From Escherichia phage vB_EcoM_G2494, in sequence record MK327935.1: a DNA stretch of 64,000 bases, one strand, 5' to 3'. The translations under genes were made by a program, and so were the position numbers. Positions 5,304-57,003 of this stretch are shown here, piece after piece (the first letter of the stretch is position 1; each line of letters begins with the position of its first letter). Under the pieces are notes generated by a model that had not been told where the DNA came from, made no database searches, and worked only from the letters and a program-made list of their open reading frames with translations.

Positions 5304-5972
5304 TTATCCCCTTTGTTTCTTAACTGAATTTGGATCTGGATTTTCTGGTAGGTCTTCCAGACCCATAGCATAACGTTGTGCATAGATTAGCATAAGAATA
5401 TCGCGAGCGCAATCATGAATTGCATCATGTGCGATAAAACCATCTAGCGTACCCATTGGTAACGGACACTCACACATCCCGCGATGCATCAATGTACGCT
5501 CAATGGCGGTGCGAACATCTCGGATGTTCCAGAATCGCACAGGTTCAAGATTGAACGTCTCTCGTGTATTGTGTGCATCGCGGATCATATCAACTAGTAA
5601 CGGAATATCAAACGCATTACCGCGTGACCACATTACGGATTTAACCGGATCTACTCCTACAGATTCACAGAATGCGTTAAAACGCGCTAAACCTTCTTTA
5701 GTTGATACTTCCGTACCATTTGTGATTAATTGCTTTCTCATGCCTTCTGAGGCGGTATTCTTCCACCATTCAACCACACCATGATCAAAGATCCTTACAC
5801 CTTTCTGGGAAGGAATATCAAATTTTACCAGAAAGGAATTGTCAACCAGTTCTTTAAATGTAGGTGGATTGTGCGGATCTTCTTTAAATCCGATTGCCGC
5901 CATATTGATCACCGCCCCATCAGGCGGATAACCTAAACTTTCAAAGTCAATCATTAAATCCACTGGAAGCAT
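5304..5972 (-). CDS. dexA: exonuclease A (DnaQ-like 3'-5' exonuclease)
   Basis: 222 aa; DFESLG Exo I motif and overall pattern of T4 DexA; position between gene 39 and dda. Confidence 0.8.
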   Translation of the reverse strand: MLPVDLMIDFESLGYPPDGAVINMAAIGFKEDPHNPPTFKELVDNSFLVKFDIPSQKGVRIFDHGVVEWWKNTASEGMRKQLITNGTEVSTKEGLARFNAFCESVGVDPVKSVMWSRGNAFDIPLLVDMIRDAHNTRETFNLEPVRFWNIRDVRTAIERTLMHRGMCECPLPMGTLDGFIAHDAIHDCARDILMLIYAQRYAMGLEDLPENPDPNSVKKQRG

Positions 5973-5973
5973 T

Positions 5974-6213
5974 TTAAATATCCTCCGCGATGTGTCGGAA
6001 CAACTCCAGATCGTTTTTATCTAACACTAGATTGCATTTGGTTGACCGATAATTGCAAACATTAATCAGTAAACTTTCCATCGCCTGTACCGACTGTACT
6101 TTATGTCGAAAAGACATTACATGTTGTGCATAATCAGCGTGAATTTTATCACGATGGAATGTTACGATGGCATCTAAACATAACAGTTTATCAAGTTCAT
6201 CAATAATCATCAT
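5974..6213 (-). CDS. hypothetical protein
   Basis: 79-aa ORF abutting dexA. Confidence 0.4.
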   Translation of the reverse strand: MMIIDELDKLLCLDAIVTFHRDKIHADYAQHVMSFRHKVQSVQAMESLLINVCNYRSTKCNLVLDKNDLELFRHIAEDI

Positions 6214-6214
6214 A

Positions 6215-6397
6215 TCAGTAACCCCGCTTAGTGAAGTGATCTATCATGGAATTAATACAATCGGCCTCGCTGATTCCAGATATACCCCATCCGTAGTTAC
6301 CCCACCTGAAATGCATGTATACACATTCGCCATGATACGATACTTTCACTTCGTCAAATTCTGGGATACTTCGCATAATCATAATAATATTCCTCAA
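6215..6397 (-). CDS. hypothetical protein
   Basis: 60-aa ORF between dda and dexA. Confidence 0.35.
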   Translation of the reverse strand: MRNIIMIMRSIPEFDEVKVSYHGECVYMHFRWGNYGWGISGISEADCINSMIDHFTKRGY

Positions 6398-7785
6398 ATA
6401 TAGTCTACACGATACCGTGCACGGGTAACACCCACATATAATAACTGCATTGCCAATTCAAAGTCAACATTATCTGTACACATGCAAGGGGTATACAGGA
6501 ACACGCGGTCTACGCTGATTCCTTGTGACTTATGAATAGTGCAAGCTGGTAATGCTTTTACATTCAAGAACATACGCTTCATCGTCCAGAAAGAATCCCA
6601 ATCCGGTTTAAAATTCGGATTCTCTTTCTTCATTTCGCGATATTGTCCGGCGACCGTATTCAGATAGATAGAGAAAATGTTCTTCTGACGTTGTTCTGTC
6701 AGAATGTTGATTTCTACTAAATCTGGTTTATCTGTAGTTATTCCGACTGCATCTAAACCGACTTTCTGATTTAGGATTTCTTTGTCTTCGTCATCATCGA
6801 CGCTTTCCACTTTCAGAGTATATCCTAAAACTGGTTGCGGATCTACCCCCGTGCAACGTAATGTAAATTCGCGCGGTATAACCTCTTTAACTCGGATCAT
6901 CTCACCATTGTTAAAAATAACATTGGGGATCTTCTTCCCGCGTTCATCTCGCAGATATTCGATCAATGGTTCCTGAGTAACCAGAATTTCATCTACAATC
7001 ACTGGTTCATCGGTGTTATAAACGCGCTTACGTACAATTTCATTGAGTTTTTCGACGCTCTTGTTAGTGTAGGCCAGAATACGGTTTTCTAGAAGGTCTT
7101 CCGGCGTTTTAACGGTTTCGAGATAATGTTTCATGAACTCTGGTAGAGTTGAGCTATGGAATACACCCTCGTTACCGCACTGCTTTTCGAATACCCATTT
7201 ACCGTTACGGACAGCGGTCGCCACATCAATTATTGGCGCATTAGATCGTTTAATCTCTGTAAGTTCTACATTCTGAAACCTTTCATCGGTGAAGAAAGGA
7301 GAGATCGACGTTGCGCCGCTCGGATCAACTGGTCGTAACTGGTACAGATCACCCACGGCAATAATAACAATTCGACCGTTGATACTCTTCATAAGAATAT
7401 CAAATAGTTTCTTATCGACCATACTCGCTTCATCAACAATGATGATCTGAACATCATCTAGCTTAGGAGTATCTTTTTGCTCAAATACTTGAGTATCTTC
7501 ATAGTTGGTCGGGTTTAGTCGCAGTAGTGCATGTAAAGTAAATGCTTGACGACCTACCGCTTTACTCAAAACTTTTTTAGCCTGGTGGGTAGGCGTTGCC
7601 AAAACCACACCAGTTACACCACGGCGGACCATTTCCTGAACAATGAATTTCATCATTGCGGTTTTACCAGTACCCGCCGCACCACGGACAGTTGTATGCT
7701 TCTTTTGTTCAATGCGTTTCATTAGAACATCAAAAGCATGTTTTTGCCCGTCTGTTAACATATCGAAAGTTAATACTCTGCTCAT
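6394..7785 (-). CDS. dda: Dda DNA helicase (SF1B)
   Basis: 463 aa; strong N-terminal similarity to T4 Dda (LTDGQKHAF, GAAGTGKT Walker A, IIVDEASM Walker B). Confidence 0.9.
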   Translation of the reverse strand: MSRVLTFDMLTDGQKHAFDVLMKRIEQKKHTTVRGAAGTGKTAMMKFIVQEMVRRGVTGVVLATPTHQAKKVLSKAVGRQAFTLHALLRLNPTNYEDTQVFEQKDTPKLDDVQIIIVDEASMVDKKLFDILMKSINGRIVIIAVGDLYQLRPVDPSGATSISPFFTDERFQNVELTEIKRSNAPIIDVATAVRNGKWVFEKQCGNEGVFHSSTLPEFMKHYLETVKTPEDLLENRILAYTNKSVEKLNEIVRKRVYNTDEPVIVDEILVTQEPLIEYLRDERGKKIPNVIFNNGEMIRVKEVIPREFTLRCTGVDPQPVLGYTLKVESVDDDEDKEILNQKVGLDAVGITTDKPDLVEINILTEQRQKNIFSIYLNTVAGQYREMKKENPNFKPDWDSFWTMKRMFLNVKALPACTIHKSQGISVDRVFLYTPCMCTDNVDFELAMQLLYVGVTRARYRVDYI

Positions 7786-8099
7786 TATCCTAAAATCCTC
7801 ACCTTGCGAACACAGATAGTATTGAGTTCTCGCCGTACCCGTTCTTTTTCATATTCAGGAATTTTATATTCGATACCATCCCGAACAATTTCAGAAGACC
7901 GGATTATGCCAAATTTTCGTTTAGGTACAACCTTGTATTTCGGTTCACCCGCCAATAGACTCTCACAATAATCTATCTGATCACACATTGACGCTAACGC
8001 AGCATCATGTGTTTCGCAAGTTAGGACGCGACCTTTCGCGTCCACTGAGTATTGAAAGAATCCGTCTTTATCACGATAACATACAGCAAATACATGCAT
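7785..8099 (-). CDS. hypothetical protein (dda.1 position)
   Basis: 104-aa ORF, start overlaps upstream stop. Confidence 0.45.
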   Translation of the reverse strand: MHVFAVCYRDKDGFFQYSVDAKGRVLTCETHDAALASMCDQIDYCESLLAGEPKYKVVPKRKFGIIRSSEIVRDGIEYKIPEYEKERVRRELNTICVRKVRILG

Positions 8100-8854
8100 T
8101 ATAAACCTACCTTCGCTTTCATCAATTCAATCCACGACGCATCAATCGGAAGCCCGTATTTCACGCGTTCTTTTTGTGCTGGCGTTAAGTTCTCATACTT
8201 AGAAAGAGATTCAATCAAAACGCTGGTATATTTTAGCACGATTTCGGTATTGTTTGCAATAGCCTTAAGTTTTTCCTCTTTCTTGTTGATTTCGCTAAGT
8301 GCTTGCTTGAGATCTGCAATTTTCTGATAACGTTCTTCCATACGGAAGAGAGTATTTTTAATCGCTCGCTCGGCTGCCTCTGCTTTCTCCGGTTCGTTGT
8401 GCTTTTTGTGGCGCTCGATTGCTAATTTCTTTTCTTCGATTGCCATTTCCTGATTTTTGATGCGATTCTCGTTAAGTTCGATCCACTCGATGTACTTCGC
8501 ACGTAGGGCAATTTCATCATCAGAAAGTTTACCTTTAGTTCCCAGTTCCTGGATCTCTTTAAGAGATTCGATAGTGTGATTGCCACGGAAAGAATTGTAT
8601 TTCAGTTTAACCGGAATTACATTGCCATCAACATATCCCAGATTGCAATCAATGCGCTCTAAGGAGAGTCCGTCATCACCTTCACCGAAAGCCTCACCTG
8701 AATAGGCACAATGAGTCTGACGGTAAATGTTACGAACAGTGACTAAGCTCATAGAGAAGTCTTTGTTGCGACGTGAAGCACCAGCCATGATAGAGTTCAG
8801 CCGGAAAACAACCAGCGCCAATTCTTCGTTAGATTTAAAAGCAAACAGTTTCAT
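8099..8854 (-). CDS. hypothetical coiled-coil protein (srd position)
   Basis: 251 aa, charged helical C-terminal half; lies where T4 carries srd but sequence identity not verified. Confidence 0.45.
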   Translation of the reverse strand: MKLFAFKSNEELALVVFRLNSIMAGASRRNKDFSMSLVTVRNIYRQTHCAYSGEAFGEGDDGLSLERIDCNLGYVDGNVIPVKLKYNSFRGNHTIESLKEIQELGTKGKLSDDEIALRAKYIEWIELNENRIKNQEMAIEEKKLAIERHKKHNEPEKAEAAERAIKNTLFRMEERYQKIADLKQALSEINKKEEKLKAIANNTEIVLKYTSVLIESLSKYENLTPAQKERVKYGLPIDASWIELMKAKVGL

Positions 8855-9488: not shown

Positions 9489-10007
9489 TTAGTAGCCGCG
9501 TTCTTGACGGGCGAAGTTTTCAGCATTTTTCAGATAGTACAGCTTGAAGATATCCTTAGCGGTTAAACCTAAGCCCAGCATTTTAATCAGCACAAAATGC
9601 CAGATATCGATCAATTCCATCGCAATTTCGGTTTTATCGTCATCTGACAGATCAGCAAATTTACGCGCTCGTGCTTCGCCGTGGTTCTTCTTCCACACTT
9701 TAGTAATTGCGCTTGCATCTTTGCCATTTGACATGCCACCCAGGGCAACATAAAGTTCTCGTGTCTCGTCGTCGATTGCGTCATCCCACAACTTCATCCA
9801 GTCAAGGATCTCCCCGCAAGTTTCCAGCTTATCAGGATGCATTACCCACTCAAATTTATCAGCTAGTGCGACCTGTAATCCTTTTTGCATATCTAACATT
9901 ACTTGCAGCGGATCTTTACCGCTAGTGATTGCCTCGGAATACGCAATACCAGCTTTAGACATAGTTTCATCATTAACAAGACCAGCACAAGAATTAAATT
10001 CACTCAT
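9489..10007 (-). CDS. 56: dCTP pyrophosphatase (dCTPase/dUTPase, MazG-like)
   Basis: Trimmed to MSEFNS...; PLQVMLDMQ and IFKLYYLKNAENFARQERGY closely match T4 gp56. Confidence 0.85.
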   Translation of the reverse strand: MSEFNSCAGLVNDETMSKAGIAYSEAITSGKDPLQVMLDMQKGLQVALADKFEWVMHPDKLETCGEILDWMKLWDDAIDDETRELYVALGGMSNGKDASAITKVWKKNHGEARARKFADLSDDDKTEIAMELIDIWHFVLIKMLGLGLTAKDIFKLYYLKNAENFARQERGY

Positions 10008-10017
10008 AATAAACCTC

Positions 10018-10581
10018 TCAAATAACATTAAACACTGCAAATTCACCGTGATACTTATACGCATAGTCATTATATACTATTGCGGCGTCTATTTCTAGGT
10101 CAAATTGTCCTATATAGACTTTATTTCCTTCATTGTCCCTTATCTGGGCGACCCATTTACCCGAACGACTATTATAATGCACTCCTTTAAAATTGCTAGT
10201 TTTAGTTTGGTTATTTCTTCTCATATTTTGGGTATTCTGTTTTTGTGTCGCCTCTCTTAAGTTTGGAGGATCGTTGTTTTCTGGATTCCCGTCAATATGG
10301 TCAATGACAGGTGGGCAATACCCATGCTCTAAGAAGAATACTATTCTATGCACAAGCTCAAAATATTGTTTTCCTTCAAAAGAAAATGAGACTTTTAGGT
10401 GTCCGGCTGTGACTTTAGATACCTTTACTATATCACCAACCTTATAAAACTGGCCTTCTTTCGTCGTTCGGCTTGCTTTGCTGTTTGTTTTATGAATCAA
10501 TATACCCCTTTCGTGTCTATATCTTCGACGTATTTCATCCTTTAATTCATCGCTCCATTCTTTGGCTTTCCTTACCCTCAC
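10018..10581 (-). CDS. free-standing HNH homing endonuclease with AP2 DNA-binding domain
   Basis: 187 aa; HNH motif (DHIDGNPENNDPPNLREAT) plus AP2-like domain (KGVHY...GKWVAQI...YIGQF); GTG start with GAGGG SD. Confidence 0.8.
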   Translation of the reverse strand: MRVRKAKEWSDELKDEIRRRYRHERGILIHKTNSKASRTTKEGQFYKVGDIVKVSKVTAGHLKVSFSFEGKQYFELVHRIVFFLEHGYCPPVIDHIDGNPENNDPPNLREATQKQNTQNMRRNNQTKTSNFKGVHYNSRSGKWVAQIRDNEGNKVYIGQFDLEIDAAIVYNDYAYKYHGEFAVFNVI

Positions 10582-11636: not shown

Positions 11637-11840
11637 TTATAGCTCAAATTTCATGAAAGTTCCTACACTTTCATTTTCATTCTCTCCGTTCTCATCTAAG
11701 CCAAATTTGTAGACACTACCATCTGGCGATGTGTAAGAGAATACACGAAAACGGCCTACCGGGTCAAGTTCTGTAAATTCATATTCTTTTCCGGCTTCAA
11801 AAAGTGCATATGTGCTTTTAAGACATTTCATCGTAATCAT
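11637..11840 (-). CDS. hypothetical protein
   Basis: 67-aa ORF upstream of gene 61. Confidence 0.45.
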   Translation of the reverse strand: MITMKCLKSTYALFEAGKEYEFTELDPVGRFRVFSYTSPDGSVYKFGLDENGENENESVGTFMKFEL

Positions 11841-12553: not shown

Positions 12554-13189
12554 TCAATCGAATGTAGAAAGCAAATGTTTTGTTTCTTTCAGTTGTCGTT
12601 CAAGATTTTTGCGTTTCTCTTTAAGTTGCATTTTAGCATTATTTCGCTGTTTTTCAACATCTTTATCAATATTCTTAGTCCAATTATCAATATCAGAATA
12701 AGTTGGCATACCCAATTCTAGACCTAATGCGGTTGGATACAGGGTAACAGTCCATAAACCGCTAATCTTCTTAAATAGGTCTGGGTGTAGTGTACTATCT
12801 ACATCTTCCGGTGTCAACTCTTTTTCTTCTTTCAGTGGTGGGATCTCGTCATATGGTTCTAGTGCATTTACTTTAATATCAGATACCTCATCAAAGAATC
12901 CGCGTACATCCGCAGGAAATACACAAGCAATTTCCCAACCGTGATCACGCAGAGAAGTAATATTTTTCACTCCCCCACCATGTGTGATGATTGATGTGAC
13001 ATTGCCATCAAGGTCCACCGAATTTACGAGAAATGGCTTATCGTCTGTCAGATCATTATAAAACTGTGCTTCGGCTGTAGTCATCTCCAGAAACAGATCT
13101 CGAATCGGACGACCATCCGGTGCGTTACCTTCCTTGAGAGTATAAAAGCGACTTACGATCCATTTTGGCGGTAAAGTATTAGCGATCAT
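12554..13189 (-). CDS. hypothetical protein (61.2-like by position and size)
   Basis: 211 aa, acidic, C-terminal coiled coil; position and size recall T4 61.2; homology not verified. Confidence 0.5.
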   Translation of the reverse strand: MIANTLPPKWIVSRFYTLKEGNAPDGRPIRDLFLEMTTAEAQFYNDLTDDKPFLVNSVDLDGNVTSIITHGGGVKNITSLRDHGWEIACVFPADVRGFFDEVSDIKVNALEPYDEIPPLKEEKELTPEDVDSTLHPDLFKKISGLWTVTLYPTALGLELGMPTYSDIDNWTKNIDKDVEKQRNNAKMQLKEKRKNLERQLKETKHLLSTFD

Positions 13190-31135: not shown

Positions 31136-31405
31136 TCAATAATCATAAATCTCCCTCAGTTCTTTATAGCCTCCAATGTGCTCGTTGTCAATGAATATCT
31201 GGGGGTATACAAATCGGAGGCTCTTTGAGTTCAGCCTCCCCGCCAGTTCTTCAATCATATCACGGTCGGGAATAATGTCAACCCCAACCTGCTTGAATAC
31301 TGGTTTAAGTGTATACGGAATACCCAGATCATCCAGTAGCTTCATTGCACTAATACAACCATAACAATGATAAGCCTCTTTCGGTATGCCGTATATCTCG
31401 ATCAT
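31136..31405 (-). CDS. nrdH: glutaredoxin-like protein (NrdH-type)
   Basis: 89 aa; CYGC redox motif near N-terminus, glutaredoxin fold pattern; in nrd gene neighbourhood. Confidence 0.65.
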   Translation of the reverse strand: MIEIYGIPKEAYHCYGCISAMKLLDDLGIPYTLKPVFKQVGVDIIPDRDMIEELAGRLNSKSLRFVYPQIFIDNEHIGGYKELREIYDY

Positions 31406-31902
31406 TTCTCAGCCTTTAATCTTTCTAGTTCTTCTTCCAGTTCCTTGATCCGTCGGTCACGTTCAAAGTCACGCTGCAACTTAGTGGCGAATACTCGTTT
31501 AAACTGATTGTAATCATCGATTTTAAACACTTCTTCTTCGCCATAGCGACGCACAGAAACTTCGTAGTTATTGAAGAATTGTTGCATCATTGCTTCGGAT
31601 GATAGTTCTGCTGATACTACTTTAAAATATTGATCTTCGGTAGGTGAAAACCAATTACAAGCATAAAGATAAACCTTTTCATTGTCTGGACACTGGTAAG
31701 CCTTACCATCGATTTCAATCACAGAAACATATTCAGGTATACTAGATGAATCAATAGCTAAGACTTTAAACGCACGGTCCCCGATAAACTCGGAGATCAC
31801 ACGATTCGCATCACTGGTTGCAAATGCTTTACGCGCTTGTTCGTTTTTCCACTGATAGGTCATACCAACAACAAACATATTACCAACCTCGCTCTTTACC
31901 AA
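31402..31902 (-). CDS. hypothetical protein, paralog family A
   Basis: 166 aa; shares GxTYxWK N-terminal module and charged helical C-terminal tail with the next three ORFs. Confidence 0.5.
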   Translation of the reverse strand: MVKSEVGNMFVVGMTYQWKNEQARKAFATSDANRVISEFIGDRAFKVLAIDSSSIPEYVSVIEIDGKAYQCPDNEKVYLYACNWFSPTEDQYFKVVSAELSSEAMMQQFFNNYEVSVRRYGEEEVFKIDDYNQFKRVFATKLQRDFERDRRIKELEEELERLKAEK

Positions 31903-32704
31903 TCAAAAATTCAACTTCACGACGTTTAATGTCTTCTTGAAGGTCTTTAATCTTCTGGCGATCTTGCATGATTTCATCCATCTTGTCAAGTGCTGCGATG
32001 AAATCATCGAAACGTTCAAAGGTTTTACCTTCATTTGCTTCGCCAAATTTAACCATTCTCAGGCCGTAACGACTACTAAACAGACGTTTCAACTGTCCAA
32101 CGATTTTAGAATCAGTGGTTATAACTTCCAATTCTTCTACTTCACGAAAGAATTTTCTATCAGAATCAATAAACCAGCTAGTTCCTTTATGGTCTCTATC
32201 TTCGGTTGCGCTCATTAGAGTATGGTCTTTACCATCAATTTCAATTACATCAATTTGCCCACATGGACTAACATTTTTAACAGTAAAAGGTCTATAATTT
32301 ATTGCTCGTGCAATAACATAATTAAGGTTAGATACGTTTTCAGCATAATGGCAGAAGTCTGTCATAGCATTCGCATCTTTCCAAGTATAAGTTTTACCAA
32401 CTTCCCATTTCTGGGGAACTTCTTCAACTTCACGAAAGAATTTTCGATCGAATGGACTAAAGAAATATGTTGCAGTCCAAATGTCTTTTCCTGTAGCAGT
32501 TTTTGCCGTATGATAAACACCGTCTAGCTCTATTGCATTAATCCAACCGTTACCCTCGATCTCGATGATGGTAAATGGCTTGTCACCAATAGCTGCACTA
32601 ATATCGCTGTTAAGTGGAGAAAGAACACCTTCTCCGTTAGTAATAAACTCAGTTTTAGCGTTTTCATCTTTCCAGGTGTAAGTTTTACCAATTTCCCATT
32701 TCAT
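31880..32704 (-). CDS. hypothetical protein, paralog family A (internally duplicated)
   Basis: 274 aa; two tandem copies of module W-E-x-GKTYTWKD ... FSPFDRKFFREVEE. Confidence 0.5.
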   Translation of the reverse strand: MKWEIGKTYTWKDENAKTEFITNGEGVLSPLNSDISAAIGDKPFTIIEIEGNGWINAIELDGVYHTAKTATGKDIWTATYFFSPFDRKFFREVEEVPQKWEVGKTYTWKDANAMTDFCHYAENVSNLNYVIARAINYRPFTVKNVSPCGQIDVIEIDGKDHTLMSATEDRDHKGTSWFIDSDRKFFREVEELEVITTDSKIVGQLKRLFSSRYGLRMVKFGEANEGKTFERFDDFIAALDKMDEIMQDRQKIKDLQEDIKRREVEFLIGKERGW

Positions 32705-32716
32705 AATATATTCCCC

Positions 32717-33196
32717 TTAACCGATTTTATCAAGTTCGTTTAATGCTTTCTCTGCTTCCTGTATAGCTTGCACTCTTTCCGGCATTTTGTCAAGAAAATC
32801 TTTCAACTCTTCAAAACTGGAGATATGACGCAAGGCATTAGCACCGATAGCCGCATGTGATTTGCATTCAAAGCGAATTTTATAATTATCCATCGCCAAT
32901 TTGAGAAGATCAATTAATTTAGATTCTTCTGGAATAATAATTTCTTCAAATCTGCTACGGTCATGATCCAGAAACCAACAAGATAGACCTACATCGGTTG
33001 AACTCATATAAGTTCCATCATGAAGATAAACAGACCGCACGTATCCTTTTTTCGCATCAACCGACGCAACTTTAAACGGTAATCGCAGATATTTCAAATA
33101 ATCAACATCATACCATTTAAAAAATTGGTTTGCATCTTTTACATCTTTCCACGCATAGGTCTTACCAGCTTCCCATTTCATAATATCATCTCTCAT
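32717..33196 (-). CDS. hypothetical protein, paralog family A
   Basis: 159 aa; MKWEAGKTYAWKD module. Confidence 0.5.
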   Translation of the reverse strand: MRDDIMKWEAGKTYAWKDVKDANQFFKWYDVDYLKYLRLPFKVASVDAKKGYVRSVYLHDGTYMSSTDVGLSCWFLDHDRSRFEEIIIPEESKLIDLLKLAMDNYKIRFECKSHAAIGANALRHISSFEELKDFLDKMPERVQAIQEAEKALNELDKIG

Positions 33197-33722
33197 TTTT
33201 GATACGTGATTCTAATTGGATCATACGGTCGCGCGTTTGCTTGTATTCGCGGATAGCACCGATTCGGCTAGGCATACCATCCAGTACGCTCTTAATCCCT
33301 TCTAGGGTAGTGATTTTAGCAATACTATTATGTAATCCCATCTTATCGATTAACTGAATGTCGTAGGCTTCCATAAGCAGACCCAGACGTTCTAAAGTTA
33401 GGTCTTCTTCTTTTTCTTCCGATTCTGGAATCTTAGGTTCAATAGTAACTTCGGTAAAGAAACGACGCTCACCAGACCAAAACCACACACCGGAACAGCC
33501 AATAGGGGATTCTTTTAACGTCATAGAGTCGTAACCACTGCCGATAATAGTAATTTCTCTAACATCACCATCATCGTCAAGGTCTTCTACCCTAAACGGG
33601 CGACCAGCCAACAAGTCAACAATACATCTGTTAATAGACGACGAAAATTTAGTCAGTTCGGCTTTCGACGCTTCGCATTCAATCTTGTAAGTTTTACCAA
33701 CTTCCCATTCCATAATAATCAC
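33186..33722 (-). CDS. hypothetical protein, paralog family A
   Basis: 178 aa; MEWEVGKTYKIE module, charged C-terminal helix. Confidence 0.5.
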   Translation of the reverse strand: MIIMEWEVGKTYKIECEASKAELTKFSSSINRCIVDLLAGRPFRVEDLDDDGDVREITIIGSGYDSMTLKESPIGCSGVWFWSGERRFFTEVTIEPKIPESEEKEEDLTLERLGLLMEAYDIQLIDKMGLHNSIAKITTLEGIKSVLDGMPSRIGAIREYKQTRDRMIQLESRIKNER

Positions 33723-33723
33723 C

Positions 33724-34233
33724 TCAAATAATTTTCACTGGAATACTATTAACAATCTTGTATTGTACTTGATTGTCAGACCCCCGCCACGGCTTCTTCG
33801 TTGGCATATCTTTAATATAACGCCCATCGATGAACATGTCAACTGATTCTACAATTTTTCTTTGCTCATCATTCAATTGGTCAAGGGTATAACCAGACCA
33901 TAGCCAAATATCTTTATTTGGCATCCATGATTTTACTTCATCGATGATCCGTTGTACACCCTTTAAATTGCGTTTATACAGTGGATCGCCACCTAAGAAT
34001 GTTAGCCCCTGAATAAAATCAGGTCTAAGCAGATCCAGAATTAATCCCATTGTATCATCGGTGAATAGTTCCCCGTTCTTAGGATTGAGTAGACTGGAAT
34101 TAAAGCAACCATCACATGCGTGTGAACATCCGGTAACGTAAAGGGAGACTCTCACTCCCTCACCGTTAACCATATCACAATCTTTAATATCGGCATAGCG
34201 TAGTTTGCCGTATGTATCAGAACTCATATTCAA
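33724..34233 (-). CDS. nrdG: anaerobic ribonucleotide reductase activating protein (radical SAM)
   Basis: 169 aa; C-x3-C-x2-C cluster (GCSHACDGC) and NrdG-like size. Confidence 0.85.
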   Translation of the reverse strand: MNMSSDTYGKLRYADIKDCDMVNGEGVRVSLYVTGCSHACDGCFNSSLLNPKNGELFTDDTMGLILDLLRPDFIQGLTFLGGDPLYKRNLKGVQRIIDEVKSWMPNKDIWLWSGYTLDQLNDEQRKIVESVDMFIDGRYIKDMPTKKPWRGSDNQVQYKIVNSIPVKII

Positions 34234-34444
34234 TTACCCCGAACTCGTTTACAATCTGCGCTTTATAGTAACCACCGCGAGATGCTAATAGATAAGCTGG
34301 GCTTAGGTATTCGTATTCACGGATTTCTACTTGTGCGTTTTCAGTTTCCCAAATCAGTAAAGTCCACATATTTGATTCTCCTGTAAAGTTGTATCTCGTC
34401 TTGATGAATATAGTATAGGGGATCTCGCGATCCCCGTCAAGCAT
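34217..34444 (-). CDS. hypothetical protein
   Basis: 75-aa ORF; real start probably internal. Confidence 0.3.
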   Translation of the reverse strand: MLDGDREIPYTIFIKTRYNFTGESNMWTLLIWETENAQVEIREYEYLSPAYLLASRGGYYKAQIVNEFGVIEYEF

Positions 34445-34449
34445 TTATT

Positions 34450-34992
34450 TTAAATTTTTCGAATGTATTCAGACCATTCCTTCCCTGTCATTTCGGACCC
34501 GTTCTGGAAACTGAAATATTCATACGGCATCGAGTCAAGATAAAACAGGATCATACATCGCGCCATATAATACCAATCACGATTAAAGTAAACTACGTTA
34601 TCACCAGTACCATCAACCCCTTTATCATAACCATCGCGGGTACGGGCGACCCATTGAATGGTATCATTTTTCTCACGGATAGTAACAGGTTCCCAATATC
34701 CAGCACATCCAGCATGACCACACGAACAAGTAAGGAAATATTGACCTTTTGCTTTGTTGTCATCCCATTCACGATGAATTGGTTTGATTTCGTGAAACAG
34801 TGCCAAACAATCATGATTATGCAACACTGGCTTACCATCAATCAATGCATGGAATGTATACAAACGACCAGTAGACAAATAGCTATCCTCACGCTCAACC
34901 AGTTCAATAGCAATCTTTTTAGCTTGTTCTTTGTGTCGTTGTGCTTTACGCTTACGGTTTAATGATTTCATATTCACCTCACACATTATCAA
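34450..34992 (-). CDS. hypothetical protein
   Basis: 180-aa ORF, Cys/His-rich segment (CSCGHAGCAGYW). Confidence 0.45.
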   Translation of the reverse strand: MIMCEVNMKSLNRKRKAQRHKEQAKKIAIELVEREDSYLSTGRLYTFHALIDGKPVLHNHDCLALFHEIKPIHREWDDNKAKGQYFLTCSCGHAGCAGYWEPVTIREKNDTIQWVARTRDGYDKGVDGTGDNVVYFNRDWYYMARCMILFYLDSMPYEYFSFQNGSEMTGKEWSEYIRKI

Positions 34993-35534
34993 AGGTCGCG
35001 ATATAGTACATTATGAAAATGAGAACTTGCATTACCAATATTGTAGATAATAAATTCTTCATCCGGCGCTTGCGCTACAAATTGAGTATGAGCAACCGCC
35101 ACAACCTTAAAAATACGATCCGTGATCTTGTGTTTAATTTCTGCCCCTACTTCCATAGGAACATATTCATTTGTTTCTGTTTCAGTCGCAAAACAGCCAT
35201 CTTCTTCATAAGCACGAACAAATCGGTCGCAATCAGTACGCTTAACAAATTCAAGAGTATATAATTCTCGTGAATTGTCGGTATAGACCAATACAGAATT
35301 ATTATGATAGCGAATCACATACAGGTTATTATCATCGTCAATTACGCAAAAGCTACGGATTCCTTCGCCTTTACTCCAGCAGATATTAACCACCGTTCCT
35401 CTAATAAAAAAACTTTCCTTTAAATTAAAACTAGCCAATGTGCTAGCGTGCATTTTAACAACAACACCATCGCCAATTTCCAGTTTACGAAGTTTAACTT
35501 CTTTGCTCAGTACACAAAACATCATCATCATCAT
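34989..35534 (-). CDS. hypothetical protein
   Basis: 181-aa ORF downstream of a consensus promoter. Confidence 0.45.
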   Translation of the reverse strand: MMMMMFCVLSKEVKLRKLEIGDGVVVKMHASTLASFNLKESFFIRGTVVNICWSKGEGIRSFCVIDDDNNLYVIRYHNNSVLVYTDNSRELYTLEFVKRTDCDRFVRAYEEDGCFATETETNEYVPMEVGAEIKHKITDRIFKVVAVAHTQFVAQAPDEEFIIYNIGNASSHFHNVLYRDL

Positions 35535-35561
35535 GTTGTCCTCTCGTTGTTTTCGATGTGA

Positions 35562-35591
35562 GCATTATACATTAGCTAATCAGGTTGTCAA
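35562..35591 (-). promoter_or_regulatory. sigma70-type early promoter
   Basis: minus-strand TTGACA - 16 nt - TATAAT directly after the nrdD terminator. Confidence 0.5.
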
Positions 35592-35628
35592 CACCCCAAA
35601 ACGAAAAAGCCGACCCTTTCGGATCGGC
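35592..35628 (-). terminator. intrinsic terminator after nrdD
   Basis: GC-rich hairpin followed by TTTTTCGTTTT on minus strand. Confidence 0.55.
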
Positions 35629-35634
35629 TGAAAA

Positions 35635-37497
35635 TTACATGTGCTTAACGCGGTTTACCATCTCGGAGTGTTTCCCGTGGTTAAATGGACGCAGATCAAC
35701 AGATCCAAGATATCCACTAACGCGACGGATAACATTCATCTTTTCCAGATTGTCATTGCCGCAATCAGGACAAACAAAACCAGACTCGGTCGCTCTCATT
35801 TCCTTATTAGATCCGCATACATGACATACATCAGAAGGAGTATTAACACCGAAGTAGTGCAATTTATCCATTGCATAGTCCACTACAGTTTCAAGACCTT
35901 TCAGGTTGTTTTTCATGTCTGGGAACTCAACATAAGAGATCATGCCACCGGACGCCAGCCAGTGATAATCTTTCTCAAAGTCGATTTTCTCAAATGGAGT
36001 GACTTTCCGGTCTACGTCAAGGTGGAATGAGTTGGTGTACCAGTCTTTATCGGTAGCACCCTTAACAATACCAAATTGCTCTCGGTCCAGTCGATTAAAT
36101 CGATAGCAAAGGCTCTCGGCTGGCGTACCGTAAAGACTAAACCCAAGTCCGGTTTCGTCCTTCCATTTTTCAGTATAATGACGCAAGATCTTAAGAATAT
36201 GTTTACCGTATCGCTGCGCATCTTCCGAATCAAACGGATGAACATCAAACAGGACGCTCAATACCTCATGTAAACCAATATATCCAAGAGAGATACTAGC
36301 GCGACCATCTTTCAGAACTTCCAAAATTTCATCGTTTTGATGAATACGGAAAAACGCACCTTCGGTATACAGTACAGGAGCAACATTAGCTTTAGCGCCT
36401 TTTAAAGCGTCTACGCGACTCATGAGCGCATCAAAACAAATAGGCATACGATTAGCTAGCTCTTGTTCGAATAGCTCAATTCTGCGCATTACAGACGCTT
36501 TACCAGCACGACGCGCGGCAATAAGGGCAATACGCGGAAGATTCAGAGTCACAACACCTAAGTTATTACGTCCGTCTAATACTTCTTCGCCTTTCTCATT
36601 ATGCCACACACCCAGGAAGCTACGACAACCCATCGGGCTAACCGGAACACTAGATCCAGTGATACTACGGTTATTCTTCGCAGAGATATAATCAGGGTAA
36701 AGACGCTTACTAGAACATTCCAATGCAAGTTGCTTAATGTCGTAGTTCGGATCTTCCGGTTTAAGGTTTAATCCTTCTTCTAAGAACATCACCAGCTTAG
36801 GAAACACCGGAGTGATACCATCTTTACCTAAACCTTTAGTTCGAACTTTCAGGATCGCTTTCTGAATCAGTTTTTCTTCCCAGCTAGTCCCCATACCAAA
36901 TGTTAAAGTCACAAAAGGTGTTTGACCGTTGGTGGAGAACAAAGTGTTGATTTCATATTCCAACGCTTGATACCCGTCTAGCGTTTCTTTTTCTGTCTTC
37001 TCTTGTGCATAGAGAGTATCCGCTTTGATTCCGTAGGTTTCGGCATCAGCAAGGTGTTTATGATATGTTTTCTCAACATACGGTGCTAACACCTGATCGA
37101 TGTTTGCAATTGTGGTCCCGCCATATTGATGACTTGCCACCTGTGCGATAATTTGAGCGGTTACAGCACATGCAACACCGATCGATTTAGGACTTTCGAT
37201 TTGTGCGCTACCCAATTTAAAACCATTCTCTAACATGTCTTTGAGATTAACAAGACAGCAGTTAGTAAACGGCATAGCGGGTGCATAATCCATATCATGA
37301 TAATGAATGTCACCGTCTACATGCGCTTTATAGATGTGCTCAGGTAACACGGTTTTAGCAATCTGTTTAGACACAGCACCAGCAATCAGATCTCGACGTG
37401 TCGGGAATGTTCGCGCGTCTTTGTTCGCGTTCTCTTTGCTTACTTCGTTTTCTTTACCCGTTGCGATCTCTGTAATGTCTTTGATTAGTTTTTCCAT
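35635..37497 (-). CDS. nrdD: anaerobic ribonucleoside-triphosphate reductase (glycyl radical enzyme)
   Basis: 620 aa; C-terminal glycyl radical motif RVSGYLG and CxxC zinc ribbon; catalytic-core blocks. Confidence 0.92.
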   Translation of the reverse strand: MEKLIKDITEIATGKENEVSKENANKDARTFPTRRDLIAGAVSKQIAKTVLPEHIYKAHVDGDIHYHDMDYAPAMPFTNCCLVNLKDMLENGFKLGSAQIESPKSIGVACAVTAQIIAQVASHQYGGTTIANIDQVLAPYVEKTYHKHLADAETYGIKADTLYAQEKTEKETLDGYQALEYEINTLFSTNGQTPFVTLTFGMGTSWEEKLIQKAILKVRTKGLGKDGITPVFPKLVMFLEEGLNLKPEDPNYDIKQLALECSSKRLYPDYISAKNNRSITGSSVPVSPMGCRSFLGVWHNEKGEEVLDGRNNLGVVTLNLPRIALIAARRAGKASVMRRIELFEQELANRMPICFDALMSRVDALKGAKANVAPVLYTEGAFFRIHQNDEILEVLKDGRASISLGYIGLHEVLSVLFDVHPFDSEDAQRYGKHILKILRHYTEKWKDETGLGFSLYGTPAESLCYRFNRLDREQFGIVKGATDKDWYTNSFHLDVDRKVTPFEKIDFEKDYHWLASGGMISYVEFPDMKNNLKGLETVVDYAMDKLHYFGVNTPSDVCHVCGSNKEMRATESGFVCPDCGNDNLEKMNVIRRVSGYLGSVDLRPFNHGKHSEMVNRVKHM

Positions 37498-37541
37498 TGT
37501 ATCACCTATGAAAAAGCGGGATTTCTCCCGCTCGTTGATAG

Positions 37542-38036
37542 TTATTTTACCAGTTCTGCTAATTCTTTTTCCGCCGCTTCCAGTTCAGCTTTAAGCTGTT
37601 TAATCTCTTGTCGCTTCTTATTAGCGGCTTCCTGCTTACTATTTCGGATAACCTGATCTAGATACAACTCCCAATCCTGAATATTTTTGATAATGTATCC
37701 GTCAACATTAATTGGTCGGAGATTCAGTACAGCTTCCAGTTTAGTCGCAAAAACTTTAATTGCTGGTGTGAAGTATTCATATTCGTTATCTTCAAACCAA
37801 TAACCTAGACTTGCATTATCAATACGAAGACGAAGTTTAAGATCAAGGTCTTTATCGTCGGTGTAAAGATCTTTCACCTGCCCCATCGAGCTAACAACAA
37901 CTTTAAAACGAATTTTATCTACACCGCCAAAAACATCTTCAAGAATATCAGCAATTGAGCTATTAGCGCAAGATTGGTCGCTGAATGCGTCAAGGTTTTC
38001 TTTAGTTACAGTATACCAAACATCTTGTACCCACAT
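37542..38036 (-). CDS. hypothetical protein, C-terminal coiled coil
   Basis: 164 aa; GAGAGGATTATATTATG start context; ends in KQLKAELEAAEKELAELVK helix. Confidence 0.5.
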   Translation of the reverse strand: MWVQDVWYTVTKENLDAFSDQSCANSSIADILEDVFGGVDKIRFKVVVSSMGQVKDLYTDDKDLDLKLRLRIDNASLGYWFEDNEYEYFTPAIKVFATKLEAVLNLRPINVDGYIIKNIQDWELYLDQVIRNSKQEAANKKRQEIKQLKAELEAAEKELAELVK

Positions 38037-38065
38037 AATATAATCCTCTCGTTGTTAAGTGGGAG

Positions 38066-38095
38066 TATTATAGCATACTCCCTTCGCATGTCAAG
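38066..38095 (-). promoter_or_regulatory. sigma70-type early promoter with dyad symmetry (PeSL-like)
   Basis: TTGACA - 16 nt - TATAAT; -10 lies in loop of GGGAGTAT/ATACTCCC inverted repeat. Confidence 0.5.
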
Positions 38096-39269
38096 CACTA
38101 ACTTTTTTCTTTACTGCTTTCACCTTCTGGCGAATTGCTCGAATCTCTTCGATCTCTTTTTCAGTCTCTTTAACAATTTCTTTGCGATTCTGAATATCTG
38201 TATCGAGATTATCATCAAGTTTAGGCAGCATGTCAATCAAGAACTTTTTAAAGTCTTTCAGGTTTCGGATAACAGCACCTTCACCCATTACCGCAACACC
38301 CACACCATCCGGCAGATCACCAAACAGCTTAACCAGTTCAGACAGATGATCATGATCTTCTAGTGCTTCTTCCGGTTCAGATGGCAGTTCAACAAAGTTA
38401 TAACGTTCATCATTGCTGATCAAGTGATACCAGCAAAGCCCGAAAGATTTCGGTGTATATTCTACACCATCAATTTCAACCGCGTCAACACTTCCATAAT
38501 CATCTACTTTAGTTACCTTAAATCCTTGTCCCAGCTTTTGAACAATTTCAACAACATGACTTGATACAGTTTCAGCGGTAAACCAATATGGCAAATTATG
38601 CTGATTTGGCTTGTAGCGTTCACCTACTTTAAATCTCTGACCAGCCGCTTGCATAGAATGAAATTGTTGTTTCGTGATTTCCGCGAAGTATTCAAATTCG
38701 CCACCATCAAACACACAAGCCCATTGATCACAAAAACGATCTGCCTTAACAGTTTCACCTTTCGCGGTGATCGTGGTAGCTGATCCGTGCAATTCTTCTT
38801 CAACTAAAAAGCCATATTCGACAAAATCAACAAGTTTCATAGCTTCTTTGTGATCTGGATCATGCTCTCCCCAGAATCGCTTAAATTCTTGCAAACCTTC
38901 TGGGGTAAACGAATAACATTTACCTTTTTCAAAGTAAGTCGGCATTGCATCCTCTTTCTTGTTCATCGCTTCGTATGCCTCTTTTGAGATGCGTTTAAAG
39001 TATTTACGCTCACTGTGCATAATCATAGTAGCCCAATAATCCACAATATCATTAGCGGAATAAACTACATCTCCAGCTTCAATAGTAATAACATGACCGT
39101 GGTCATCTTTTTCTAATACTTTAAAGCCCTTTTCTACGATTTCAGCAACCCGAATATGACCACGGCGCGAAGCATCGGTCAGAATAATTGAATAGCGAGA
39201 AAAGTCTAGAAACTCATCTTTACCGCCTTCACGGAATGCATAGTAATGACCTTCAAAGAATTTAGCCAT
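38091..39269 (-). CDS. hypothetical protein, paralog family B (three internal repeats)
   Basis: 392 aa; three ~95-aa repeats; ERKYFKRISK motif shared with ORFs 39326 and 39907; charged C-terminal helix. Confidence 0.5.
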   Translation of the reverse strand: MAKFFEGHYYAFREGGKDEFLDFSRYSIILTDASRRGHIRVAEIVEKGFKVLEKDDHGHVITIEAGDVVYSANDIVDYWATMIMHSERKYFKRISKEAYEAMNKKEDAMPTYFEKGKCYSFTPEGLQEFKRFWGEHDPDHKEAMKLVDFVEYGFLVEEELHGSATTITAKGETVKADRFCDQWACVFDGGEFEYFAEITKQQFHSMQAAGQRFKVGERYKPNQHNLPYWFTAETVSSHVVEIVQKLGQGFKVTKVDDYGSVDAVEIDGVEYTPKSFGLCWYHLISNDERYNFVELPSEPEEALEDHDHLSELVKLFGDLPDGVGVAVMGEGAVIRNLKDFKKFLIDMLPKLDDNLDTDIQNRKEIVKETEKEIEEIRAIRQKVKAVKKKVSA

Positions 39270-39299
39270 AATATAATCCTCTCGTTGTTTAGACGGGAG

Positions 39300-39330
39300 T
39301 ATCTTACTACTCCCGTTTCATCATGTCAAG
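39300..39330 (-). promoter_or_regulatory. sigma70-type early promoter with dyad symmetry (PeSL-like)
   Basis: TTGACA - 17 nt - TAAGAT; 9-bp inverted repeat ACGGGAGTA/TACTCCCGT around -10. Confidence 0.45.
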
Positions 39331-39892
39331 CGTTAAATGACTTTTGGATCTCTTTCAGTTCAGCTACTTTATCGGCGCTGAATTTAGCGTAGGTATCATG
39401 TCGAATAATTTCACTTTCAAGAAAGGTTTCCAGCCGAGTTCTATTTTCAATAAGGAACTCTTTCAGGTCTTCCGCGTTCTTGATAAAGATTTTATTGTCG
39501 GTAATGTCATCTTCAATCGCAAAGGAGATAGAGCGAACTTTACCAAACAAGTTAATCAGATCTTCCAGAGATTCTTCTTTCTTAACTGGTTTCATTTCTT
39601 CAAACTGCTTTTTAGTGATACGTTTAAAGTATTTGCGCTCGTTTGCAGCAATCAGAACAGATGCACCTTCATACTCATGAGTTTCTACCAGATACACACG
39701 CCCCATCGCATCAACAGTTAGAACTTTAAAGCCGTTACAAAGCACGTCATACAAGAACTTATTATGTTGCGGACATCGTTTGATAAATTCCTCTGCGGAC
39801 TCAGCATTACGGAAAGTGTAATAACGACCTCGTTCAAAAACAGCATCAGTTGAAGACTTAGCCGGATACAATTTATACGTTTTCTGTACCAT
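39326..39892 (-). CDS. hypothetical protein, paralog family B
   Basis: Trimmed to MVQKTYKLY... with GAGGATTATATTATG context; ERKYFKRITK motif. Confidence 0.5.
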   Translation of the reverse strand: MVQKTYKLYPAKSSTDAVFERGRYYTFRNAESAEEFIKRCPQHNKFLYDVLCNGFKVLTVDAMGRVYLVETHEYEGASVLIAANERKYFKRITKKQFEEMKPVKKEESLEDLINLFGKVRSISFAIEDDITDNKIFIKNAEDLKEFLIENRTRLETFLESEIIRHDTYAKFSADKVAELKEIQKSFNA

Positions 39893-39906
39893 AATATAAT
39901 CCTCTA

Positions 39907-40179
39907 TCATTTCACTAATTGAACAGCACGAAACAGAATGCGGTCACACGGAAGAAGCATAAATTCCCAACGCGGATCAAAGTCTTTAGCGGTATATGTT
40001 TTCCCATCAACCGAGATTTCACTTACATAACCAATAGGTGACACTTTAAGAACAGTAAACCCATTCTTGATGACTTCGTAGGTATCTTTCAATCCTTCGT
40101 AGTCATCCTCTAGGAAGTCTTTACGTGCTTGCTCAGATTTAAAAACATAGGCCACACCAGCTTTAAACATCTTACGCAT
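39907..40179 (-). CDS. hypothetical protein, paralog family B-related
   Basis: Trimmed to MRKMFKAG... with AGGAG SD; the listed longer ORF would overlap its own promoter. Confidence 0.45.
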   Translation of the reverse strand: MRKMFKAGVAYVFKSEQARKDFLEDDYEGLKDTYEVIKNGFTVLKVSPIGYVSEISVDGKTYTAKDFDPRWEFMLLPCDRILFRAVQLVK

Positions 40180-40210
40180 TGTTGATTCTCCTTCTTGATT
40201 AGATGGGAGT

Positions 40211-40239
40211 ATTTTACTACTCCCATTTCTTATTGTCAA
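40211..40239 (-). promoter_or_regulatory. sigma70-type early promoter with dyad symmetry (PeSL-like)
   Basis: TTGACA - 17 nt - TAAAAT; inverted repeat ATGGGAGTA/TACTCCCAT around -10. Confidence 0.45.
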
Positions 40240-56729: not shown

Positions 56730-56982
56730 AGAATGAAATTTTCACAGACACAATTTTACCATAAGTGAAGAATGAATATACATTATCGAGATATTCAACG
56801 TCACCTACAATCACATCAAACTGCGGATCAGCAACCGCCGCAACATATTCTACCAGTTCATCAAGAGAATGCAACTTAATTTCATCAATTCGGCTGTATT
56901 TGGTTGCATCTTTGATTTTAAAACCACGTTCTTTCAGCTTATCAATTAGAATTTCACGCGGAGTTTCAAACAGTTTGCTCAT
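56662..56982 (-). CDS. hypothetical protein
   Basis: 106 aa; GAGGATTATATTATG start context. Confidence 0.45.
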   Translation of the reverse strand: MSKLFETPREILIDKLKERGFKIKDATKYSRIDEIKLHSLDELVEYVAAVADPQFDVIVGDVEYLDNVYSFFTYGKIVSVKISFCENVEVLASEPEKPTDNGPSAA

Positions 56983-57003
56983 AATATAATCCTCACATTA
57001 AAT

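Follow-up and report, generated by a model that had tools for sequence, protein, structure and literature searches.

Two gene arrays around nrdD and nrdG

We analyzed a 64-kb (64,000-nucleotide [nt]) stretch of Escherichia phage vB_EcoM_G2494 (sequence record MK327935.1), hereinafter the window, to which all coordinates refer. Two arrays of four genes each, here called A and B, flank the anaerobic ribonucleotide reductase genes nrdG and nrdD and encode proteins with one to three copies of an N-terminal module (N-module), a predicted small barrel that appears to be exchanged as a unit among related phages. The 8.8-kb region that holds the arrays matches 58 phage records at at least 90% DNA identity (top match, 97.8%; RB49, 97.7%), which makes the phage a Krischvirus (Straboviridae), i.e., an RB49-like, T4-type coliphage. 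Every gene of the region is carried by the minus strand, and the order of transcription, with start codons taken from the RB49 annotation, is gp49, B0, B1, B2, B3, nrdD, three open reading frames (ORFs) unrelated to the family, nrdG, A1, A2, A3, A4, and nrdH. A first-pass annotation made from the letters alone had rightly described arrays on both sides of nrdG and nrdD but had placed one of them "downstream of nrdD"; read as transcribed, array B lies upstream of nrdD and array A downstream of nrdG, and the three unrelated ORFs separate the two reductase genes. Array A is tightly packed, with gaps of 1 to 12 nt or overlaps all the way from nrdG through A1, A2, A3, and A4 to nrdH. The genes, their parts, and the main repeats are as follows (aa, amino acids; HMM, hidden Markov model of the module).

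39907-40179, minus strand: B0 (RB49p060 ortholog), 90 aa; an N-module alone, without a C-terminal domain (HMM E = 8.5e-30; start at 40179 taken from the RB49 annotation)
39326-39892, minus strand: B1 (RB49p059 ortholog, "goF mRNA metabolism modulator"), 188 aa; one module and a C-terminal domain
38091-39269, minus strand: B2 (RB49p058 ortholog, "frd.2"), 392 aa; modules a (38958-39269), b (38646-38957), and c (38370-38645) and a C-terminal domain (38091-38369)
37542-38036, minus strand: B3 (RB49p057 ortholog), 164 aa, between B2 and nrdD; one module and a C-terminal domain
37497-35635, minus strand: nrdD (RB49 start codon)
34217-35525, minus strand: three ORFs unrelated to the family, between nrdD and nrdG
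34227-33724, minus strand: nrdG (RB49 start codon)
33186-33713, minus strand: A1 (RB49p051 ortholog), 175 aa; N-module at aa 1-97 (DNA 33423-33713) and a C-terminal domain
32717-33181, minus strand: A2 (RB49p050 ortholog), 154 aa; N-module at aa 1-88 and a C-terminal domain (HMM E = 3e-27)
31880-32704, minus strand: A3 (RB49p049 ortholog), 274 aa; modules a (32414-32704) and b (32120-32413) and a C-terminal domain (31880-32119)
31402-31878, minus strand: A4 (RB49p048 ortholog), 158 aa; one N-module and a C-terminal domain (HMM E = 2e-28); its stop overlaps the nrdH start
12554-13189, minus strand: ninth member (RB49p021 ortholog, "dc2" in RB49), 211 aa; immediately downstream of the gene 41 helicase
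32641-32709: 69-nt module-start repeat, reference copy, encoding M-K-W-E-x-G-K-T-Y-x-W-K-D (other copies at 32350-32418, 33118-33186, and 33650-33718)
32132-32161: 30-nt module-end repeat, copy 1, encoding DRKFFREVEE at the end of an A3 module
32420-32449: 30-nt module-end repeat, copy 2, 93% identical to copy 1 and 288 nt apart from it

In all, the window holds 12 modules of ~95 aa across nine genes. Coordinates, BLASTP, and HMM searches agree with the earlier description of four array A ORFs that share an N-terminal module, two copies of which lie in the 274-aa protein (HMM domains at E = 2e-31 and 4e-34), and the three copies counted in the 392-aa protein were likewise recovered as three HMM domains (each at ~E = 1e-28). 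The three ORFs then listed for array B are real, but the list was incomplete, having missed both B3 and the ninth member. The charged terminal helix reported for array A extends further: seven of the eight array genes, and eight of the nine family proteins (B0 being the exception), have a C-terminal domain that ends in one, with a pattern of helix, short hairpin, helix (such as F-x-x-F-L-D-K-M), and charged helix of 30 to 40 residues, which in B3 is heptad-like. The motifs at the module boundaries are the longest DNA repeats of array A.

BLASTP aligned pairs within array A at 42 to 52 bits and pairs within array B at 32 to 40 bits. An alignment of 11 modules (~95 aa) has a start of the form [WF]-x-x-G-x-x-Y, a conserved Phe, F-x-V, a Gly, V-x-x-I, and an end motif [DE]-R-x-[FY]-F-x-E-V, and the module HMM, run against the 649 ORFs of a six-frame translation of the window, scored each copy at E = 1e-24 to 1e-34. 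Array B had been credited with a shared module different from that of array A; the sharing is correct, but the difference dissolves in cross-searches. An HMM of array A only found B2 (8.6e-14), B0 (1.8e-11), and B1 (2.7e-7), and an HMM of array B only found A3 (2.9e-17), A4 (4.9e-8), A1 (1e-5), and A2 (2e-4). B3 and the ORF at 12554-13189 were detected with profiles that left each of them out (E = 2.5e-5 and 1e-7, respectively). The matches between arrays are reciprocal, and the modules of both form one family rather than two. In a PHROG scan, phrog_5347, phrog_622, and phrog_3710 were matched from both arrays, as were three PHROGs with the name "goF mRNA metabolism modulator," which A3, A4, B0, B1, and B2 hit; B2 matched phrog_8944 at 6.8e-214, with cross-matches to phrog_5347 and phrog_622. 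Scans of all members with Pfam (no match at E ≤ 1), NCBIfam, and PADLOC recovered nothing credible, nor did the module profile when run against the sequences of PDB chains (best E = 0.02, an unrelated kinase). Weak profile matches at 56665-56997, 7788-8126, and 11637-11840 were rejected as members, as they belong to other PHROGs and lack cross-matches, and a profile search of the rest of the RB49 genome (62 to 161 kb) found no further member.

The absence of Pfam coverage and the biased composition of the C-terminal helices might suggest that the shared motifs are chance, low-complexity resemblances or that the genes are decaying ORFans. We give this view virtually no weight, as it is already refuted by alignments. 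The first-pass annotation had named such chance matches as what would overturn its proposal, and pairwise alignment and HMM comparison instead place the similarity far above chance, with reciprocal HMM matches to 1e-17 and a score of 46 bits for T4 GoF. Structure prediction of the repeat, which it had also proposed, gave the same AlphaFold2 (AF2) fold for both A3 modules. Moreover, the ORFs of all ten genomes are intact apart from one possible frameshift in FL15, their ratio of nonsynonymous to synonymous substitution rates (dN/dS) is <1, and ~90 credible related clusters exist among 1.84 billion proteins. Paralogs within the window are 18 to 49% identical, A3a and A3b being the closest pair, which argues for ancient arrays; the idea that recent tandem duplication gave rise to them does not hold.

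Module variation among ten Krischvirus genomes

We compared ten Krischvirus genomes: the window, RB49, E26, JK32, UPWr_E1, AV108, FL37, FL15, Makalu_003, and Phi1. Each of them has the same number and order of genes, 4+4, and the array genes are the most variable of the region. The housekeeping genes around them (gp55, RB49p044, nrdH, nrdG, nrdD, and gp49) are 96 to 100% identical at the protein level, with a synonymous divergence (dS) of 0.01 to 0.2 and a dN/dS of 0.02 to 0.27. In contrast, replaced N-modules share 44 to 60% identity with the window allele (39% for the most distant pair of alleles) at a dS of >1, and the C-terminal domain of the same gene is 84 to 100% identical where the N-module has been replaced. 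The individual cases, as percent identity to the window allele, are as follows.

A1: N-module 48%, C-terminal domain 93%; divergent allele in UPWr_E1
A2: N-module 45-46%, C-terminal domain 100%; divergent allele in E26, UPWr_E1, FL37, and Makalu_003
A3 module b: 44%, C-terminal domain 95-96%; divergent allele in JK32 and UPWr_E1
A4: N-module 56-60%, C-terminal domain 86-88%; divergent allele in five genomes
B3: N-module 49%, C-terminal domain 84%; divergent allele in JK32

The A2 N-module falls into three allele classes at 39 to 46% identity, on a C-terminal domain that is 98 to 100% identical in the ten genomes, and the A4 N-module falls into two classes at 55 to 60% identity. The reverse also occurs once: FL15 and Phi1 carry a replaced C-terminal domain in B1 (65% identity). 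The A2 ortholog of FL15 (9508-9988), whose N-module represents a third allele class and is 78% identical to that of the window, is annotated as two overlapping coding sequences, which suggests a frameshift, due either to a pseudogene or to a sequencing error.

Residue-level alignments of A3 resolve the joints; among phages, the gene occurs with both modules, with module a only, with module b only, and with module a plus a 44%-identical b. In E26, module a stands alone, the deletion running exactly between two DRKFFREVEE repeats (a 30-nt repeat joint); in AV108, module b stands alone, the deletion running between two MKWEIGKTYTWKD repeats (a 69-nt repeat joint); and in JK32, the replaced stretch is module b, bounded by the KWExGKTYxWKD and DRKFFREVEE motifs. 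The motifs are the exact sites of these joints. Metagenomes also hold single-module A3 variants, so that the copy-number comparison suggested in the first pass finds the 274-aa gene reduced to one module in E26, AV108, and metagenomic relatives alike. One of these metagenomic variants (P0008) diverges completely from otherwise identical relatives over its last 40 residues, in a frameshift-like manner. Across phages from China, Nepal, Denmark, and Ireland, the allele classes combine differently from position to position, which argues for recombination between phages. Taken together, these cases show whole N-modules being replaced, deleted, or retained through homologous recombination at conserved sequences of the module boundaries, with the C-terminal domains remaining nearly constant.

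Gene-wide positive selection was sought among the ten genomes and not found: dN/dS is 0.2 to 0.46 between deep alleles (dS >1) and 0.15 to 0.86 within classes and never exceeds 1. Within allele classes, however, the parts of the proteins differ. The N-modules have 146 nonsynonymous and 149 synonymous polymorphic codons (ratio, 0.98), as against 59 and 111 in the C-terminal domains (0.53) and 71 and 302 in the housekeeping neighbors (0.24); the odds ratio of N-modules is 4.2 versus housekeeping genes (P = 7e-17) and 1.84 versus tails (P = 0.003). Constraint on the barrels is thus weaker or in part diversifying. Replaced modules with a dS of >1 between housekeeping flanks at 0.01 to 0.2 indicate old, long-standing alleles exchanged by recombination rather than fast mutation in place. 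Hence, of the rapid diversification proposed initially, several elements stand, namely, the highest variability of the region, polymorphic module copy number, and a nonsynonymous excess in the N-modules; what does not stand is in-place mutation as its mode, given old paralogs, a fixed gene count, and a dN/dS never above 1. The hypervariability arises by cassette exchange and not by recent duplication or gene-wide positive selection.

Part of this variability is a property of the region and not of the GoF-like family alone, since two of the unrelated ORFs between nrdD and nrdG, neither with a Pfam match, also show whole-gene allele replacement. The ORF at 34989-35525 (minus strand), which is preceded by a terminator and a promoter with a 12/12 match to consensus, is 61% identical in JK32 and 74% identical in UPWr_E1, and that at 34450-34977 (minus strand) is 51% identical in Makalu_003.

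Elsewhere in the window, an ORF of 187 aa with HNH_3 (E = 9e-14) and AP2 domains (10018-10581, minus strand) separates the gene 61 primase from the gene that comes next. RB49 is annotated with gene 56 directly after gene 61, and the ORF resembles a homing-endonuclease insertion without an RB49 counterpart. The offset between the window and RB49 grows from 561 bp at dc2 to 1,105 bp at nrdH, which implies at least one further indel of ~540 bp in between (~13 to 31 kb).

Predicted fold and relationship to the T4 GoF family

With a module profile made from the window only, T4 GoF (residues 3 to 92) reached 46 bits, Frd.2 reached 18.6 bits, and MotB.1 reached, weakly, 9.4 bits, with neighboring T4 proteins at ~0. 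These three T4 proteins were recently reported to share a predicted N-terminal five-stranded barrel, termed LSm-like (Kim et al. 2025, PMC12152347). In that work, which is silent on RB49, tandem arrays, and multimodule members, T4 GoF is expressed early at ~20,000 copies per cell, part of it running as a dimer on gels, and amber mutants in each of the three genes and deletions of goF and of motB.1 are without a laboratory phenotype (PMC12152347). Of the fitness genes scored in a CRISPR interference screen, T4 frd.2 was the only one without a known function. Both arrays probably constitute one lineage-specific expansion of this T4-type family. Already known is that two of the genes carry frd.2/goF labels in RefSeq: in RB49, p048 to p051, p057, and p060 are "hypothetical," p058 is named "frd.2," and p058 and p059 have the product name "goF mRNA metabolism modulator." In RB49, the interval from 39.2 to dexA lacks goF, cef, motB, and motB.1, and no frd.2-like gene lies between frd and gene 32, so that the family's canonical T4 sites are vacant in this genus; with no such gene beside frd, the "frd.2" label on the 392-aa gene should be read as one of family membership, reflecting homology and not orthology or position. 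The T4 mutant protein GoF(D25Y) alters the gene 41 mRNA level, and the place of the ninth member beside gene 41 may be a coincidence.

We modeled two proteins with AF2. For A1 (alignment of 42 sequences; predicted local distance difference test score [pLDDT], 73.7), the predicted barrel comprises a strand at residues 8 to 11, two helices at 14 to 35, and strands at 40 to 45, 51 to 56, 64 to 66, and 86 to 89, and the tail comprises a helix at 99 to 117, a hairpin, a helix at 137 to 145, and a long helix at 147 to 174. The model of A3 (pLDDT, 76.0) has the same barrel twice (8 to 93 and 105 to 189, the second resting on the single sequence, as the alignment has nearly no coverage of module b) and a 40-residue terminal helix (232 to 271); its predicted template-modeling score of 0.41 is consistent with a flexible, beads-on-a-string arrangement. 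The predicted module is a bent, five-stranded, antiparallel SH3-like barrel whose nearest solved fold is the FeoA-type SH3. Foldseek searches of the BFVD viral models returned 70 matches at E ≤ 1e-3, one of them annotated as GoF, and the named matches are nearly all from T4-type phages of Aeromonas, Proteus, Edwardsiella, Morganella, Serratia, Citrobacter, Pectobacterium, and Escherichia.

HMMER, run in full over 1.84 billion representative proteins, recovered 102 clusters at E ≤ 1e-3, ~90 of them credible, with two modules in ~15 and three modules in two or three; P0046, P0073, and other repetitive matches of >700 aa were discarded as false positives that accumulate score on unrelated repeats. 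The family is small and apparently restricted to phages. In Yersinia phage MHG19 (Tevenvirinae), four adjacent family genes, one with two modules, lie at 5918-8744, at the goF locus beside the topoisomerase large-subunit gene. This is an independent tandem expansion, so that both tandem expansion and module duplication recur in the family. It also bears on whether the genes of the window encode accessory factors of the anaerobic ribonucleotide reductase, as might be supposed from their position on both sides of nrdD, nrdG, and nrdH, from the close packing of array A against nrdG and nrdH, and from the retention of this layout in ten genomes. We regard such a function as very improbable: the T4 members reside at other loci (39, motB, and frd), the MHG19 array is at goF, the ninth member is by gene 41, and NrdD and NrdG stay 96 to 100% conserved while the N-modules next to them are swapped.

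Expression signals, possible roles, and known systems

Three cassettes of the promoter-early-stem-loop (PeSL) type precede array B genes, and a further promoter follows nrdD.

40180-40239, minus strand: PeSL-type cassette before B0; TTGACA, a 9-bp stem-loop over the -10 element, Shine-Dalgarno sequence, and ATG; 11/12 consensus; fold z = -3.5
39270-39329, minus strand: PeSL-type cassette before B2; 10/12 promoter consensus; fold z = -3.9
38037-38094, minus strand: PeSL-type cassette before B3; 12/12 consensus with a TG extension; fold z = -3.15
35526-35634, minus strand: terminator-like hairpin after nrdD (9-bp GC-rich stem and T run), then a sigma-70 promoter (12/12 consensus), before an unrelated ORF

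Each of the three lies between genes and has the attributes of a PeSL, i.e., a sigma-70 consensus promoter, a stable stem-loop, and then a Shine-Dalgarno sequence and start codon. When aligned, they share the stem GGGAGTA...TACTCCC, and 0 of 200 shuffles fold as well; those before B0 and B2 share a 79-nt repeat. PeSLs of RB49 and phi1 serve both as early promoters and as terminators and bring about ORF shuffling; nrdD is among the genes named as PeSL associated (Arbiol et al. 2010, PMC2839356). Transcription of array A may come from nrdG or farther upstream or start at weaker internal promoter-like sites.

We propose that the proteins are abundant, early host-takeover factors. The barrels would serve as interchangeable target-recognition units, with the two- and three-module proteins as their multivalent versions, and the constant tail with its long charged helix would serve in assembly or in docking to a common partner or effector; the helix probably mediates oligomerization. 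The targets of the barrels may be proteins of host RNA metabolism or transcription rather than RNA itself, and several long-lived alleles might be kept because targets differ between hosts or conditions. A counter-defense or host-takeover role is a plausible candidate. Folds such as FeoA, Tudor, and SH3-like domains typically bind proteins. Protein targets are more likely than RNA targets, because the modules are mostly acidic, their nearest folds are typically protein binding, and wild-type GoF did not stabilize RNA.

Several points weigh against this proposal. The only known activity of the GoF family is that of a mutant, GoF(D25Y) (PMC12152347). Oligomerization is deduced from the length and heptad-like pattern of the last helix and early expression from promoter consensus matches alone, and array A, almost devoid of intergenic space, may be cotranscribed with nrdG. 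By HMM, the C-terminal domains of the two arrays are not significantly similar (E = 0.06), and a C-terminal profile found no match in the GoF and Frd.2 tails of T4, so that we speak of a common tail within each array only and, between the arrays, of what appears to be a parallel pattern. The comparison took in 10 of ~58 available genomes. Finally, two features point toward RNA, namely, the alignment of a GoF suppressor site with a motif that has Arg, or Arg plus Lys, in the majority of Krischvirus modules and the basic module of B1 (isoelectric point [pI], 9.1), so that some members may bind RNA.

These last features lead to a different account, in which the modules are LSm/Hfq-like RNA chaperones that stabilize phage mRNAs directly, their expansion providing several RNA specificities. 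The fold has been called LSm-like, and GoF(D25Y), unlike the wild type, lengthens the half-life of a reporter mRNA with the gene 41 leader (PMC12152347); the ninth member lies directly downstream of gene 41; and G84R, the second suppressor site in GoF, falls on the conserved [DE]-R-[KR]-[FY]-F motif in the alignment, where the preceding position is Arg in 9 of the 12 modules and the G84 column is Lys or Arg in five. An apparent natural aromatic residue at the D25 site in five modules was dropped from consideration, as the alignment there depends on the method, with MAFFT and hmmalign disagreeing in a gapped loop. Nine of the 12 modules have a pI of 4.3 to 5.1 and a net charge of -4 to -10 (otherwise, A2 is at 6.7, B0 at 7.8, and B2a at 6.2, with 10 of 13 counted segments below 7), as against a pI of 9.7 for the core of E. 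coli Hfq (residues 1 to 65), although overall charge is a crude proxy for a binding face. Moreover, neither wild-type GoF nor MotB.1 stabilized RNA, and rings could not be modeled with confidence (PMC12152347). On balance, we consider the RNA chaperone account rather unlikely.

The proposal of host-takeover factors has a more specific version, in which each barrel allele neutralizes or evades a different host factor in a counter-defense or host range arms race; this would account for the balanced polymorphism of the modules. Deep allele classes do reassort among otherwise nearly identical phages, the nonsynonymous excess is confined to the N-modules, and the locus sits in a plastic region rich in PeSL cassettes, with T4 relatives that are dispensable in the laboratory (PMC12152347). 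However, the defense-related PADLOC models and NCBIfam gave no match, dN/dS stays below 1, and the replacement of the neighboring unrelated ORFs (34450-35525) means that the pattern may be partly regional; we hold this version only tentatively. With similar reserve, we put forward the possibility that the barrels form a repertoire of specificity cassettes on oligomerizing tails, in which balancing selection keeps several ancient alleles per cassette in Krischvirus populations and reshuffling at boundary motifs matches them to strain-specific host targets, candidates for which are defense proteins and variants of the RNA decay and termination machinery. If true, these cassettes would be a phage counterpart of variable-domain and polymorphic-effector systems and would provide the first natural function for GoF-family proteins. 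Ever since the rho-suppressor work, GoF has posed a genetic puzzle, and the family was defined in 2025 from three single-domain T4 proteins without a wild-type phenotype. The natural series of module alleles, 39 to 60% identical on nearly isogenic phages, offers a ready comparison for host range, partners, and RNA effects, and six "hypothetical proteins" plus "dc2" become assignable to the GoF-like family.

Compared with known systems, the locus is not of a new kind but an unusually large, multimodule, and hypervariable branch of the family that was described in 2025. Three of its aspects appear to be undescribed in the literature searched: (i) the two arrays and their seven unlabeled genes as one family, (ii) the architecture of one to three barrels on a constant tail, and (iii) the exchange, deletion, and retention of barrels as cassettes at conserved coding motifs. 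With the T4 GoF family, the genes share a homologous N-terminal barrel of ~90 aa with a FeoA-type SH3 fold, occurrence in T4-type phages, predicted early promoter signals of the sigma-70 type, and a flexible linker to a separate C-terminal domain. T4, however, has three single-module genes, located singly beside gene 39, motB, and frd, as opposed to nine genes, eight of them in two arrays at nrdD and nrdG, with 12 modules and with two- and three-module proteins. The tails of T4 GoF and Frd.2 are not detectably related to the C-terminal domains with long charged helices found here, and exchange of single-module alleles is a feature of the Krischvirus genes as compared with the family in the T4 paper.

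The resemblance to FeoA (Pfam PF04023) and to the SH3-like domains of IdeR, ScaR, and SloR is one of fold only: there is no sequence relationship (no FeoA match at E ≤ 1; 10 to 14% identity in structural alignments), two helices are inserted between strands 1 and 2 of the phage barrel, and the phage genes lack an iron transport context. With Hfq and Sm proteins, the modules have in common a small, bent, five-stranded barrel and, in one family member, an effect on mRNA stability as a mutant. They differ in being mostly acidic, where Hfq and Sm proteins have basic RNA-binding faces, and in their single-chain models, which lack the N-terminal helix of the Sm fold and have helices inserted after strand 1 in its place. 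The signals before three B genes are like PeSLs (PMC2839356; 2014, PMC4122927) in their consensus -35 and -10 elements and a G/C-rich stem-loop over the -10 element, but array A has none between its genes, and PeSL shuffling moves whole ORFs, whereas here the unit is a protein domain and the joints are conserved coding motifs. Domain-level exchange through such motifs is a second mode of plasticity in the RB49 group, alongside the PeSL-mediated shuffling of whole ORFs.

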